From Francisella sp. (GTDB lineage: Bacteria > Pseudomonadota > Gammaproteobacteria > Francisellales > Francisellaceae), in assembly GCA_047609165.1 (NCBI GenBank), contig JBLFYO010000001.1, forward strand, positions 1 through 43,654: DNA of 43,654 bases, given 5' to 3'. Position numbers and translations under genes: made by a program. Shown here one piece after another: positions 4,186-10,354 of the stretch. Within the stretch, counting starts at the first letter, position 1. Each line of letters opens with the position of its first letter. The notes below the pieces were generated by a model. It searched no databases, was not told the origin of the DNA, and saw nothing but the letters and a program-made list of their open reading frames with translations.

Positions 4186-5631
4186 ATGGTAATTTTTGAA
4201 AAAACTCGTGGTCATAACTCTCCTGCAGTTATTCCTAAAAAAGCTGATGGTGTCTCAAAGATTCCAGAAAGTATGCTTCGTGCTAAAAAGCCGATCCTAC
4301 CACAGCAAGCTGAGCTTGATGTAGTAAGGCATTATACACAGCTATCTCGCAAGAACTTCTGTATAGATACAAATTTCTATCCATTAGGTTCGTGTACTAT
4401 GAAGTATAATCCTCGTGCTGCTCATAAATATGCTTCATTACCAGGGTTTTTAGATAGACACCCATACTCTGCTAATGAAAGTGTACAAGGTACGCTAGAA
4501 TGTATGTATGATCTTCAAGAGCTTATCAAAGAGCTTACAGGTATGACAGGTGTTTCACTAGCTCCTATGGCTGGTGCTCAAGGTGAGTTTGCTGGTGTTT
4601 CGATGATTAAAGCTTATCATCACAAACGCGGCGATTTTGAAAGAGATGAAATCATAGTTCCAGATGCAGCTCACGGTACAAACCCGGCTACGGCTAAAGT
4701 TTGTGGTTTAAAAGTTGTCGAAATACCTACTAAAAAATGTGGTGATATCGACATGGACGCTTTGGAGAAAGTACTTGGTCCTAAAACTGCAGGTATTATG
4801 CTTACAAATCCATCAACAGTTGGTGTATTTGAGAGAAATATTGGTACTATCGCAAAGATGGTGCATAAAGCTGGTGGATTACTTTACTATGATGGTGCAA
4901 ATCTAAATGCAATCATGGGTAAAGCTCGTCCTGGTGATATGGGATTTGATGTATTGCACATGAATCTACACAAGACATTTGCTACTCCACATGGTGGAGG
5001 TGGTCCAGGAGCAGGTCCTGTAGCTGTGAATGATAAGCTAAAAGAGTTTTTACCTATTCCAACAGTTGGTAAAAAAGATCATGGTTTTGCATGGCTTACA
5101 GAAGAAGATGTACCTAATTCTATAGGTAGATTATCTACATTTAACGGTAATATTGGCGTATTAATGCGTGCTTATATTTATGGAGCTATGCTTGGTGGTA
5201 ATGGACTAACTAAAGCATCTGAAATGGCTACGCTAAATGCTAACTATATTATGGCTCGCCTAAAAGATGAAGGCTTTACTATAGCTTATCCTGAACGAAG
5301 AGCATCGCATGAATTTATCGTAACTTTGAAGCCAGAGCTACAAAAGTATGGTGTGACAGCTACAGATTTTGCGAAATGCTTAATCGATAGAGGTGTGCAT
5401 GCTCCAACAATGTATTTCCCACTTTTAGTGCCAGAGTGCTTACTTATTGAGCCAACTGAAACTGAAAATGTAGATAGTATGGAGCAATTTATCAAAGCAA
5501 TGGTAGAAATTCGTGATATTGCGAAGACAGATCCAGAGTATCTAAAAGGTGCTCCGTATAATCTACCTGCTCGTCGCCTAGATGATGTAAAAGCCGCTAA
5601 AGAGCTTGATATTGTTTGGCAGCCTAAGTAA
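4186..5631 (+). CDS. gcvPB: Glycine dehydrogenase (decarboxylating) subunit 2
   Basis: [12 protein letters not shown] and the PLP-lysine motif [21 protein letters not shown]. Confidence 0.96.
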
Positions 5632-6589
5632 TAAATTTACTTCTCTTAGAAACAATTTCCTCAAAGAGGTAATTATGTGCAACATATCTGCCTACGGGTG
5701 ATAATGAGAAATATTGAACTGAGGTGTCACATATAAGTTCAAATATTGTGTTAAATTTTTTATTTTCAATGAGTTCATCTAGATGTTGGTGTAATTTTTT
5801 TTCTTCGCTGAATACCGAAGGATACTCTTTTGAGTACTTATGGAATAATACCAACCTATATATTCTAGAAAGAGCCTTAGCATCTACACCAGGTTTATTT
5901 AATTCGCTAGTACCGATATTTAATATTTTATCTTCAACCATATTTAGTGCAAATGGTGTATATAATATACTTGGTTGTTGACTATTAAATAAGCCTATTG
6001 ATTCTAAATAGCAATAATTATCCTCGTGGCTTTTTATAAGGTGAGAAAAAGGATCGTATGCTTTGCTTAAAAGTTCTTTTAACTCCTTGATAGTTTTAGG
6101 TTTACCTTTTGGAAAGTTTTCAAAGGAAGTATAGTTTAATGTTAAAATATCTAAATGGTCTTTAGAAAGATCTCCTAAGATCTTAAGAGCTTTATCTATA
6201 ATGATTTTCTTAAAAGAGCTTTCATCTTCAATAAATATCCTATCTTCAAGTGACTTTAGTAGTAACTTTTTGATATGTTCATTATTATTTATTACACATG
6301 TTTGTAAAGCATTAAAAATAGCTAATTGTATTTCAGGTGAGTCAAGTCTCAATAGTTTGTCAGGGTCTCTTTTTTTAATTTTTTCTACTAGTTCGTCTGT
6401 AAAGGTTTTGGATTTTGTTTCTACAATAGTTTTTGCATGACCACTAAATATAATTGAGTTTTCTTTGAAAACATCTAATATTATTTTTCTTATATTTTCT
6501 TCATCTATCTTGTTATTGATAGTGATAGTGGTATCATTACCGTTTATTTGAGTGGAGTTGTTTCCAGCTGTTTGATTAATTTTTGTCAT
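5624..6589 (-). CDS. Accessory hypothetical protein resembling the LPO_1073/Vpar_1526 family (Abi-alpha/DUF4393-like core), with an N-terminal N/Q/T-rich motif
   Basis: 321-aa ORF. The N-terminus [14 protein letters not shown] is followed by [12 protein letters not shown]...[12 protein letters not shown]...LEDRI...[15 protein letters not shown]. The family call is from recall of this pattern, not from a search. Confidence 0.65.
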
Positions 6590-6722
6590 CGTTTAGTTTA
6601 TTGGTTATAGTATTGTTATTTCCATTTATTTGTATTGAGCTATTCTCAGCCTTTTGAATAGTCTTTTGGGAGTTTATTTTGATTATTATCTTTCCGAATA
6701 GTTTTTTAAGTGTTATAAGCAT
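6576..6722 (-). CDS. Unannotated 48-aa small protein sharing a motif with the downstream gene
   Basis: Translated by hand as [48 protein letters not shown]. It overlaps the downstream start by 14 nt and shares 12/18 residues with the downstream N-terminus. Confidence 0.65.
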   Translation of the reverse strand: MLITLKKLFGKIIIKINSQKTIQKAENSSIQINGNNNTITNKLNDDKN

Positions 6723-6784
6723 TAGATGTTTTATTTTTATGAAACTGTATTCTATATGTAAGGTTTAATTATGAAAAATCAAGC

Positions 6785-7627
6785 TCATAATTTCCAAGCT
6801 TCAACAATATCTCCCTCTGTAATCTTCTTTTCTAAATTCAAATTATCAAAATATAGCATATATTGTTTTATGAGTTGAGCAATATACATACCTTCTCCAC
6901 CAATATAGAAAATATTATTTTTATCACAGTATTCTAGTAAATAGTTTTTTTTATTATCTTTCTCAGGCATAGCGTGGCAGAATACTATTTTCGCGGTTTT
7001 AGCTAGATCTATGAATTGAGTATTTTGCTCTAATTCGGGTGATGAAGATATCGGCGTTGCATCTACTACCAAATCATAAGGTCCTGCAAAATGTGGAATA
7101 TTATCAATACCTAAATCTTTTCTTTTTTGAGCTACTTTATCTGCATCCCTACCGACTATAGTGACTTGTAATCCTAAATCTTGTAGTACTTTAAAGGCAA
7201 CTCCAGAGACACCACCATTGCCATAAATGACAGCTGTTTTTATATCTTGTTTCGAGTCTTTGATACCTTTGGTTAAAGTTGTTTGTAAGCCGTGGCAATC
7301 GGTATTGTAGCCATATAGTTTGCCGTTTTTATTTATGATTGTATTTACAGCAAGAGTTTCTTTAGCTAATGGTTCGACACAGTCTAAAAAGGGTATAACT
7401 TTAGATTTTAAGCCATCGTGAGCTGTAACTGTGCCACCATTTACAAAAGGAGCCTTGATAGCATCGGTATAGGTCTTAGCACAAATTGAGTCTTTGAATG
7501 TGAAGTAACAAAGATTTAAGCCTAGTTTCTGTATAGCTGTATTATGGCGATGTATTGATGAATCACTACCAGATGTAGAAAGTAGAAGTTTAGTACTAGT
7601 ATTTAGTGAGATTGGAATGTTTTTCAT
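6785..7627 (-). CDS. aroE: Shikimate dehydrogenase-family protein
   Basis: AVNTI..NGKLYGYNTD and the Rossmann motif IYGNGGVS. The likely start is MKNIPISLN at 7627; the ORF-track extension to 7765 crosses the divergent promoter region. Confidence 0.8.
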   Translation of the reverse strand: MKNIPISLNTSTKLLLSTSGSDSSIHRHNTAIQKLGLNLCYFTFKDSICAKTYTDAIKAPFVNGGTVTAHDGLKSKVIPFLDCVEPLAKETLAVNTIINKNGKLYGYNTDCHGLQTTLTKGIKDSKQDIKTAVIYGNGGVSGVAFKVLQDLGLQVTIVGRDADKVAQKRKDLGIDNIPHFAGPYDLVVDATPISSSPELEQNTQFIDLAKTAKIVFCHAMPEKDNKKNYLLEYCDKNNIFYIGGEGMYIAQLIKQYMLYFDNLNLEKKITEGDIVEAWKL

Positions 7628-7794
7628 GTTCAATAATGTAAATATTTGAAGACAACTTAAGTTTATAAGAATGAATTTAAATAAGCAAATCATAATATTG
7701 CTCACTACAAGTATTACTGCTTTTATAGGATATTTATTGTCTTTTAAATATGTTAAAATTCTCATAATTATTTAAAGAAAATAACACTTATCAA

Positions 7795-8695: not shown

Positions 8696-8762
8696 TGTCA
8701 TACTACGGCTTGACCGTAGTATCCATAGAATGACACCATGAGGCTGGGCTACCCGATGAAAT
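8696..8762. repeat. RPE-like palindromic element between glyQ and murE
   Basis: TGTC-ATACTACGG-CTTGA-CCGTAGTAT-CCA has a perfect 9-bp stem (8700-8722). ATGACA at 8730-8735 closes with TGTCAT at 8696-8701. A degenerate second arm, TGGGCTACCCGATGAAAT, follows. Confidence 0.7.
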
Positions 8763-10354
8763 CTATATCTCAAATTCTAGAATTTTTTGAAAATTTCGAA
8801 AAACGATTCTGTCATCCTGAACTTGTTTCAGGATCTCATAATAATTCACAGATTAAGTCATTATATCTTGATAGCCGTAAATGTGATAAACAGTCGGGAT
8901 TTATTGCACTTAAAGGTTTATCTAGTGATGGGAATGATTATATAGAAGAAGTGATGGCTAAGGGCGTGAAGCTAATTTTGAGTGATAGGTTGTTTTTGAA
9001 AAGTCTATCAGGCTGTCATTCTGAACTTGTTTCAGGATCTCATAAGAATGGTAATAGCTTATATAAAGTAGATTCCGGATCGGAGTCCGGAATGACGCTA
9101 GTTGTTTGTATCAAGGATTTAAAAGATAAATTAGCAGGTTTAGCACAGTGGTTTTATGATTATAAAAAGCCTGCAAATGTAATAGGTATAACAGGTACAA
9201 ATGGTAAAACCTCTATTTCTAACTATATAGCTCAATTTTTAACATTAAATAATTCAGCTACATTACTTTTAGGTACAAATGGTAATGGTATTTATCCAAA
9301 TCTTTTAGAGAGTACTCATACTACTTTGGATGTGCTTTCATTGTATGAAACTATATCTTGTATGAATAGTGAGATTCTGAATCAAGTTCAGAATGACGGT
9401 CTGTGTATTGGAGGGGAATTTAGAAACTTAGTGATGGAGGTTTCTTCACATTCATTAGATCAAGGGCGTACAAAAGGTTTAGATTTTGATGTCGCAGTTT
9501 TTAGTAATCTCACACAAGATCACCTAGACTACCATAAAACTATGGAAAACTACTTTTTAGCAAAAGCTAAACTATTTCAAAATGACACTCTTAGATGTTC
9601 GATAATAAATATAGATGATGAGTACGGCAAAAGGCTTGTGAATTTAGCAAAAGGCAAAGTTCTGACAGTCAGTTTGAAATCAAAGAATGCTGATATTTAT
9701 TTACAAGTTTTAAGTGCTGATAATATGATTACAAGTTTTTCACTATATGACTCTTGTCAAAAAGTGGGTGAGTATAAAACTACTCTTTTAGGTGAGTTTA
9801 ATCTTATGAATCTTGCTTTGAGTATTACGGTTTTAAAAGCTAATAATAATTTTGAGAATATCTTAGAAAATATAGCAAATATTCAACCAGTAAAAGGGCG
9901 TATGGAAGTTATTTCACTTAAAAAAAATGTTCAAGTGATCATAGACTATGCACATACTCCTGATGCGTTAGAAAATGTCCTAAAAACTTTACAGCAATAC
10001 AAACCACATAAGCTATGGTGTATATTTGGTTGTGGTGGTAATAGAGATACTTCTAAGCGAGCTATAATGGCAAGTATCGCTGAGAAATATGCTGATAAAG
10101 TGGTTGTGACGGAAGACAATAATCGCTTTGAAGCAGTTCATAATATATTTGCAGATATAAAAACTGGTTTTGATAATCTAGCTAATCATACTTTTATAGA
10201 TTCTCGAGAAAAGGCTGTAAAGTATGCTATAGAGAATGCTGAAAGTGGAGATATTATCTTATTAGCAGGTAAAGGGCATGAGTGCTATTTGGATAAGAAT
10301 GGTGTTAAAGAATATTTTGATGAGAGGTTGGTTATAAGTAAGTATAACCAGTAA
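8756..10354 (+). CDS. murE: UDP-N-acetylmuramoyl-L-alanyl-D-glutamate--2,6-diaminopimelate ligase carrying three in-frame palindromic insertions
   Basis: DSRK, GITGTNGKT P-loop, MEVSSH, NLTQDHLDYH, DYAHTPD, FGCGGNRD..KR, EDNNR and AGKGHE. The start is probably ATG 8756 (MKSISQ) rather than 8738. Confidence 0.95.
   Translation: MKSISQILEFFENFEKRFCHPELVSGSHNNSQIKSLYLDSRKCDKQSGFIALKGLSSDGNDYIEEVMAKGVKLILSDRLFLKSLSGCHSELVSGSHKNGNSLYKVDSGSESGMTLVVCIKDLKDKLAGLAQWFYDYKKPANVIGITGTNGKTSISNYIAQFLTLNNSATLLLGTNGNGIYPNLLESTHTTLDVLSLYETISCMNSEILNQVQNDGLCIGGEFRNLVMEVSSHSLDQGRTKGLDFDVAVFSNLTQDHLDYHKTMENYFLAKAKLFQNDTLRCSIINIDDEYGKRLVNLAKGKVLTVSLKSKNADIYLQVLSADNMITSFSLYDSCQKVGEYKTTLLGEFNLMNLALSITVLKANNNFENILENIANIQPVKGRMEVISLKKNVQVIIDYAHTPDALENVLKTLQQYKPHKLWCIFGCGGNRDTSKRAIMASIAEKYADKVVVTEDNNRFEAVHNIFADIKTGFDNLANHTFIDSREKAVKYAIENAESGDIILLAGKGHECYLDKNGVKEYFDERLVISKYNQ
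8809..8841 (+). repeat. In-frame palindromic arm no. 1 in murE (encodes CHPELVSGSH)
   Basis: CTGTCATCCTGAACTTGTTTCAGGATCTCATAA with an 8-bp stem ATCCTGAA/TTCAGGAT; 32/33 identical to 9013-9045. Confidence 0.9.
9013..9097 (+). repeat. In-frame complete two-arm palindromic element no. 2 in murE (encodes CHSELVSGSHKNGNSLYKVDSGSESGMT)
   Basis: Left arm 9013-9045; right arm AGATTCCGGATCGGAGTCCGGAATGACG with an 8-bp stem at 9072-9093; GTCAT/ATGAC termini. Confidence 0.9.
9370..9399 (+). repeat. In-frame palindromic arm no. 3 in murE (encodes EILNQVQNDG)
   Basis: TGAGATTCTGAATCAAGTTCAGAATGACGG with an 8-bp stem ATTCTGAA/TTCAGAAT; matches the right arm at 2733-2761. Confidence 0.9.

Follow-up and report, generated by a model that had tools for sequence, protein, structure and literature searches.

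Organization of the locus

The window, the whole stretch of 43,654 nucleotides analyzed here, carries a two-gene cassette on the reverse strand at a site flanked by gcvPB and aroE. The features of the locus are as follows.

4186..5631, forward strand: the ORF that we take to be gcvPB, which borders a variable insertion site on the left
5624..6589, reverse strand: predicted sensor, the 321-aa protein of the LPO_1073/Vpar_1526 family (NF045477, PF28206)
5666..6499, reverse strand: Vpar_1526 domain, residues 31-308, mostly helical
6521..6574, reverse strand: sensor-side motif, residues 6-23 of the 321-aa protein
6576..6722, reverse strand: predicted effector ORF of 48 aa, with a cationic amphipathic N-terminus, a linker, and a C-terminal motif
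6603..6656, reverse strand: effector-side motif, residues 23-40 of the 48-aa protein
6669..6722, reverse strand: amphipathic cationic segment, residues 1-18 of the 48-aa protein
6749..6777, reverse strand: weak sigma-70-like consensus (9/12) in the gap that separates aroE from the 48-aa ORF, with no evidence of function
6785..7765, reverse strand: the presumably aroE-like gene, which borders the variable site on the right

The 48-aa ORF overlapped the 321-aa gene by 14 nt, and the cassette lay between gcvPB and aroE, as the first-pass annotation had described. The G+C content was 26-30% across the cassette, compared with 35-40% in gcvPB. Much of the cassette was covered, piecewise and with high identity, by contigs from three further public runs (X3, X4, and X10), so that it is no assembly artefact; no single contig piece of these runs spanned the whole cassette.

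The two proteins shared a motif, located near the C-terminus of the small protein and at the N-terminus of the large one, in which 12 of 18 residues and 37 of 54 nucleotides were identical. Six of the 12 identical residues were encoded by different codons, which were exactly those listed in the first-pass annotation. The last 34 residues of the 48-aa protein aligned with the first 28 residues of its partner with a score of 63, which was reached by one of 20,000 shuffles, while the best score of the same C-terminus against the N-termini of 134 other large proteins of the family was 41. The profile-profile match between the alignments of the small and the large proteins had a probability of 96.8 and an E-value of 2e-10. 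The earlier description of the motif as RHIM-like did not hold. The window motif reads IQING and therefore lacks the RHIM core (I/V)Q(I/V)G; the signature G-phi-Q-phi-G was also absent from it, and in the family this signature occurred in 20 of 135 small-protein motifs and in none of the 135 large-protein motifs.

The large protein and its family

The 321-aa protein matched NF045477 with 118.4 bits (E 4e-34; curated cut-off 45), which upheld its assignment as LPO_1073/Vpar_1526-like, and its close homologues matched PF28206 (Vpar_1526). Neither window protein matched an entry of Pfam or PADLOC. A search of 1.84 billion representatives returned 612 at E<=0.001. P0004 (66% identity) was the one full-length close relative, the other matches having 22-36%. 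Among the 150 matches listed, nearly all started with a motif of the type Q..GD.S.N.Q, and G9, S12, and Q16 were at least 90% conserved in an alignment of 118 sequences.

The AlphaFold models were mostly helical, with a pLDDT of 90.8 for the family member P0007 and 81.1 for the window protein, in which the sensor-side motif was modeled with low confidence (pLDDT about 59) as three short β-strands. Comparison of the P0007 model with the PDB gave no clear match (best Z 7.0, generic helical bundles), and no clear fold match was found among viral models; the missing match does not show a new fold. Prediction of a complex of three copies of residues 1-60 with the 48-aa protein scored 0.02 against a mark of 0.32 and gave no answer either way. 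No catalytic site and no sensing ligand were recognized in the Vpar_1526 protein. In a quick tree of 141 domains, the window protein and P0004 sat together on a very long branch, the position of which was unsure.

Pairing with small membrane proteins

For the family-wide comparison, we assembled two sets of viral loci (13 and 6), 80 loci each from genomes and metagenomes, which were the best of 92 and 349, respectively, and L001, L004, and L024. Collapsing at 90% identity gave 146 clusters, of which 143 had at least 150 nt of upstream sequence. These loci are distant from the window protein because the search patterns came from central members of the family. The motif profile was built only from 80 N-termini of large proteins and was applied with a cut-off of 5 bits. 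The motif was found upstream of the large gene in 116 of the 143 non-redundant loci, 112 times in another frame and 4 times in a separate ORF of the same frame, while the controls gave 0/143 on the opposite strand and 0/113 one kb upstream. Downstream hits at 3 of 129 loci were real partner genes at loci where the upstream partner was missing, and about 13 further loci had a second motif subtype that scored below the profile cut-off. When the results of the motif-profile, partner-ORF, co-variation, and motif analyses were taken together, the 143 loci comprised 130 with an upstream partner (one of them, L075, broken), 8 fusions, 3 with a downstream partner, and 2 without a partner; no partner gene was found at L130 and L024.

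The motif-bearing partners were unannotated micro-proteins with 1, 2, or 4 membrane helices. They were mostly 57-115 aa long, and in 98 of 135 cases their overlap with the large gene was 8, 11, or 14 nt. Classified by pattern (n=129), 70 were 1TM, 43 were 2TM, and 16 were of other types, counts that are biased toward transmembrane proteins by the choice of the most hydrophobic candidate ORF at each locus. None of the 22 small proteins scanned had an NCBIfam name, and 9 of the 22, all 1TM partners, matched the first 45-60 positions of the PADLOC candidate PDC-M43A. The 1TM module is thus also the N-terminus of PDC-M43A, a candidate defence protein of 203 positions, and therefore may serve other systems. 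The motifs were rich in G, Q, N, S, and I, with 0.1% proline.

Two departures from the usual order were observed. At L009 (6058-6294, +), a 2TM-motif partner followed the large gene. In Treponema (L090:7043-7620 and L092:7046-7615, both +), a TM-coiled-coil protein of about 190 aa lay downstream of the large gene, and no upstream partner was present; the N-terminal motif of this protein matched the variant of its own large protein at both loci.

Co-variation of the two motifs

Removal of the fusions and partnerless loci reduced the co-variation set from 135 to 129 loci. In 84% of 7,735 locus pairs with less than 60% identity, the cognate motifs scored higher than the swapped ones, with a mean difference of +10.2, compared with 55-61% for shuffled motifs and 44% for a non-motif segment. 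With each of 24 clusters represented by a single locus, the mean cognate score was 50.6 against 40.4±1.5, and the maximum was 47.1 in 20,000 permutations, a figure that overstates independence because the clusters still share ancestry. The small ORF upstream (or downstream) of the homologous genes, with a motif co-varying with the N-terminus of its partner, was thus found, which answers the check put forward in the first-pass annotation.

The codon was shared at 609 of 1,305 identical residues (46.7%), compared with 48.7% expected from codon usage. A cognate preference with no excess of shared codons indicates that the motif match is kept at the protein level, in agreement with the selection on protein sequence that had been proposed from the window pair. 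A recent duplication of the DNA and gene conversion were both rejected as origins of the match, and composition alone accounted for only a small part of the co-variation.

Fusions and interchangeable modules

The 1TM, 2TM, 4TM, and fused forms were interspersed on the quick tree, and 1TM, 2TM, 4TM, HNH, and amphipathic modules were interchangeable before the Vpar_1526 domain. In the HNH fusions (L029, L148, and P0090), which had PADLOC endonuclease effector matches, the motif was gone or degenerate, and the 2TM fusions (L049 and L151) had no intact motif. One or two motif copies were kept in the 1TM fusions (L107, L124, and L184). Since an HNH nuclease can occupy the slot of the membrane module, this slot would hold the effector, and the motif would stand in for a covalent link. 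The sensor/effector polarity assigned by the first-pass annotation was thus supported by those fusions in which the HNH nuclease or the 2TM module replaces the motif. A fused amphipathic-Vpar_1526 gene was present at L001 (1489-3485, −); its neighbors are presumably a Fic-like gene 5 nt ahead of it and an integrase remnant nearby.

These arrangements bear on how the shared motif would act. A minor possibility, which we consider unlikely, is that the two motifs pair as a small heterotypic β-sheet, by which the small protein would anchor the Vpar_1526 protein at the membrane; defence or some other membrane function would then ensue with no templated polymerization. With a TM module fused to the large domain, a tether is as plausible as an effector, but the HNH nuclease that replaces the TM module fits an effector slot and not an anchor. 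The Treponema partners, which bear the motif at the N-terminus of the TM-coiled-coil protein, are compatible with such docking, and so is the listing of Vpar_1526 from Veillonella among the whole-cell, surface, and outer-membrane fractions of a contaminant-rich data set, as given in the available part of the source (PMC5491611). A plain β-strand docking tag would also co-vary in the way a motif of about 20 residues did here. In contrast, near-identical motifs on both partners would be typical of in-register stacking and not of complementary docking. Amyloid-type stacking of the motifs is the reading that we prefer.

The small protein of the window

The cationic amphipathic nature of the N-terminal segment of the 48-aa protein was reproduced, with a net charge of +3 to +4 and a hydrophobic moment of 0.39-0.48. 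This segment resembled the N-terminus fused to the Vpar_1526 protein in G026 (locus L001), a genome that shares its order with the genome of the window but belongs to another family. The score was 49, which was reached by none of 20,000 shuffles, and the best of 1,380 ORF starts of the window's own genome scored 29. The 48-aa ORF agrees in position with the partner ORFs of related loci, and its overlap of 14 nt belongs to their overlap class (-8, -11, or -14 nt). The gap from aroE to the start of the 48-aa ORF was 63 nt and an in-frame stop lay 14 codons upstream, which leaves no space ahead of the ORF for a lost TM helix. The usual predicted effector of the family is a true transmembrane micro-protein, the amphipathic peptide of the window being a rare variant.

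On the family motif profile, the window small protein scored -0.4 bits, and it was the least hydrophobic partner of the set (1.1). Because of these two values and the very long branch, the window copy could be specialized or decaying. In the latter sense, the family module would be real and the window copy either a relic in decay or the product of a chance event that duplicated the 5' end of the large gene, which we regard as highly improbable. The partner is indeed short and weakly hydrophobic, but both window motifs had shifted from the family consensus together, with synonymous differences between them. The 48-aa protein (P0002) had no relatives beyond one 98% copy; the intact copy P0154 had 47 of 48 residues identical, and the frames of P0154 and P0003 were intact. 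No locus for P0004, the closest homologue, or for other close relatives turned up among the viral and metagenome contigs, which would suit a relic, whereas P0004 carries a similar motif variant and the amphipathic segment is conserved in G026. In one metatranscriptome run a contig covered 5586-5836 only and none covered the small ORF, which likewise agrees with a relic, though contigs cannot show expression.

Distribution and genomic context

The family was rare and its distribution patchy, extending across more than ten phyla. It was found in 2 of 400 genomes of the class and in 3 of 65 genomes of the order, including that of the window, and the full pair in 6 of 5,426 E. coli genomes. The E. 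coli pair (L004) lay in a P2-like prophage, between the replication and portal genes, and adjoined 3HP. The P2 interval of this pair is a hotspot described in the available text of Rousset et al. (PMC9122126). The complete 3HP defence system (Hp1-3) occupied L004:2690-5440 (−) in the P2 hotspot. In the genus of the window, the distance between gcvPB and aroE varied from about 0.5 to 26 kb (window 5631-6785, L210-L224), which marks a variable site. A type IIG restriction enzyme was present in 4 of the 15 fetched gcvPB-aroE intervals, and most other cargo was metabolic.

Among the nearest genes, a PADLOC match was found at 8 of 38 genome loci, 7 of them credible, with 150 of 171 neighbors scanned and no background rate for comparison. 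The Pfam neighbors included PIN, HNH, nucleotidyltransferase, integrase, and transposase along with many housekeeping genes. With regard to the defence islands, which had been put forward as a check, some loci had a defence context, but a credible PADLOC neighbor was present in 7 of 38 loci only. The defence context of the family is thus real but moderate.

attC-like sites followed 14 of 128 loci, compared with 3 of 497 in-gene windows, a control that was not matched for stop codons. Such sites were observed on both sides of the pair at L025, L058, L167, and L168, which suggests that these pairs are single integron cassettes. At L035 an integrase lay directly upstream of the pair.

Two overlapping genes, a small membrane peptide, a patchy and mobile distribution, and attC-like sites would also be expected of a toxin-antitoxin or addiction module, in which the large protein keeps a small membrane toxin inactive via the shared motif. 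This is very unlikely in our judgment, since fusions in which the motif is lost and a nuclease takes its place make better sense as a sensor joined to an effector, and an antitoxin would need no copy of the toxin's own motif.

Relationship to known systems

One experimentally supported amyloid-signalling anti-phage system was found in the accessible literature, the abortive infection system Bab/Agp (BASS11) of E. coli (Ibarlosa et al., 10.1101/2024.11.07.622273; Nat Microbiol 2025). According to the available text, the Vpar_1526 pairs resemble it in their adjacent genes, in their occurrence at prophage defence sites, and in the placement of the motif, which lies C-terminally in a small membrane-targeting protein and N-terminally in its non-NLR partner. 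They differ in the effector, which is a TM or amphipathic peptide of 48-170 aa and not a folded Bell/Babybell domain, and in the partner, a domain of about 280-350 aa where the same text describes a 1,094-aa TPR-GreA/B-PIN protein. TPR-GreA/B-PIN and Babybell domains were absent from the 321-aa and 48-aa proteins. The spacing of Q92, D99, and N100 of BASS11, compared by the residues named in the text alone, occurred in 0 of 135 motif pairs.

The two-gene layout and the higher similarity within pairs are shared with the Bell/NLR pairs BASS1-10 and with fungal HET-S/NWD2, as far as these are covered in the accessible text of Dyrka et al. 2020 (10.1101/2020.01.06.895854), which also reports a G/N/Q-type, proline-poor bias of BASS motifs. 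As in BASS1-10 there, the motif has about 20-25 residues and is proline-poor and rich in G, N, Q, I, and V. Unlike BASS1-10 as described there, the Vpar_1526 pairs have no Bell domain and no G-phi-Q-phi-G on the sensor side (0/135), and they occur in many unicellular lineages, whereas Bell/NLR pairs are found mainly in multicellular bacteria. No NB-ARC/NACHT sensor or Bell effector was matched in Pfam, NCBIfam, or PADLOC.

The E. coli member has been listed before. System 141 of Table S5B in Rousset 2022 (PMC9122126), labeled DUF6358 and Abi_alpha, was reported in the P2 hotspot with 14 occurrences; it is identical to L004, and 2 TM were noted in its protein 1. In that table it is a candidate only, and its row gives no shared motif; the window partner is amphipathic instead. 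Its sequences were absent from the cloned-system tables and the other supplementary files of that paper (file 6 in part). Rst_2TM_1TM_TIR was also considered and, by its listed sequences, is a different system.

Abi-alpha (DUF4393/PF14337; Lossouarn 2019) and Belisama (DUF2806; Darracq 2024) are, in the available descriptions, helical Abi proteins of similar size, to which the N-terminal half of Vpar_1526 is possibly distantly related. Both are described there as single genes in contrast to the Vpar_1526 pair, and inspection by eye of the sequence upstream of 10 Abi_alpha-domain loci revealed no comparable partner. This resemblance bears on a reversal of roles, which we hold to be quite unlikely, whereby the small membrane protein would sense a membrane event of infection and activate an Abi-alpha-like Vpar_1526 killer. 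Abi-alpha alone causes premature lysis, according to the accessible text of PMC6356687, there were weak Abi_alpha signals, among them an Atlas value of 0.78, and the E. coli protein bears the label Abi_alpha in Table S5B. However, the homology was unconfirmed: an Abi_alpha domain was found in 1 of 118 Vpar_1526 members (E 0.007), and hhalign gave a probability below 3% (E 0.015-0.019, compared with 0.037 for the reversed control). Moreover, three unrelated types of small protein and an HNH domain swap before a constant large domain, which speaks against the reversal.

Literature searches on the family names, accessions, PDC-M43, and Abi-alpha with amyloid, mostly outside subscription papers, found no description of such a pairing, and no experiment with a family member was found. 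No link between the family and the motif was found in the accessible parts of reports including DefensePredictor, Mordret 2025, PMC12261475, PMC13506858, PMC12254948, PMC13601566, and 10.64898/2026.10.19.760177.

Proposed mechanism

The genes of this family are paired, both partners carry the motif, the two motifs co-vary at the protein level, the modules are interchangeable, and the motif is lost in the 2TM and HNH fusions. On this basis, and by analogy with Bab/Agp, the two genes probably make up a single conserved module; a co-evolving motif is common to their products, which would act in amyloid-type anti-phage signalling. In such a mechanism, the Vpar_1526 protein would sense phage infection and oligomerize, whereby its N-terminal motifs would nucleate a β-stacked (amyloid-type) fold. 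This fold would serve as a template for the counterpart motif on the small protein, and the clustered membrane segments of the small proteins would damage the membrane and abort the infection. Physical contact between the partners, the cross-β fold, the polarity, the phage trigger, and the membrane damage are all presumed parts of this scheme. The motif of the Vpar_1526 pairs is in all probability not a RHIM, and we expect the sensor and the effectors to be new to amyloid signalling. A broader proposition, which we consider evenly balanced, is that these pairs would constitute an overlooked, widespread, minimal amyloid immune family, in which the Vpar_1526 sensor fires swappable membrane micro-proteins via a new class of motif; the window peptide would then be one helix plus a switch, and the fusions would show the motif replacing a covalent link.

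If true, amyloid signalling would gain a sensor domain and a motif class that are both new, along with effectors of only 48-80 residues, overlooked by annotation, in more than ten phyla. The reading also offers a function hypothesis for Vpar_1526, an uncharacterized family of Pfam and NCBIfam. The two-gene forms, the loci with swapped order, the fusions devoid of the motif, and the motif subtypes provide natural controls, and the E. coli member lends itself to direct experiment.

Elsewhere in the window, an ORF of 538 aa at 8738-10354 (+), which we take to be murE-like, contained extra segments including two near-identical stretches of 10 residues; to us these segments resemble short palindromic repeats inserted in frame.
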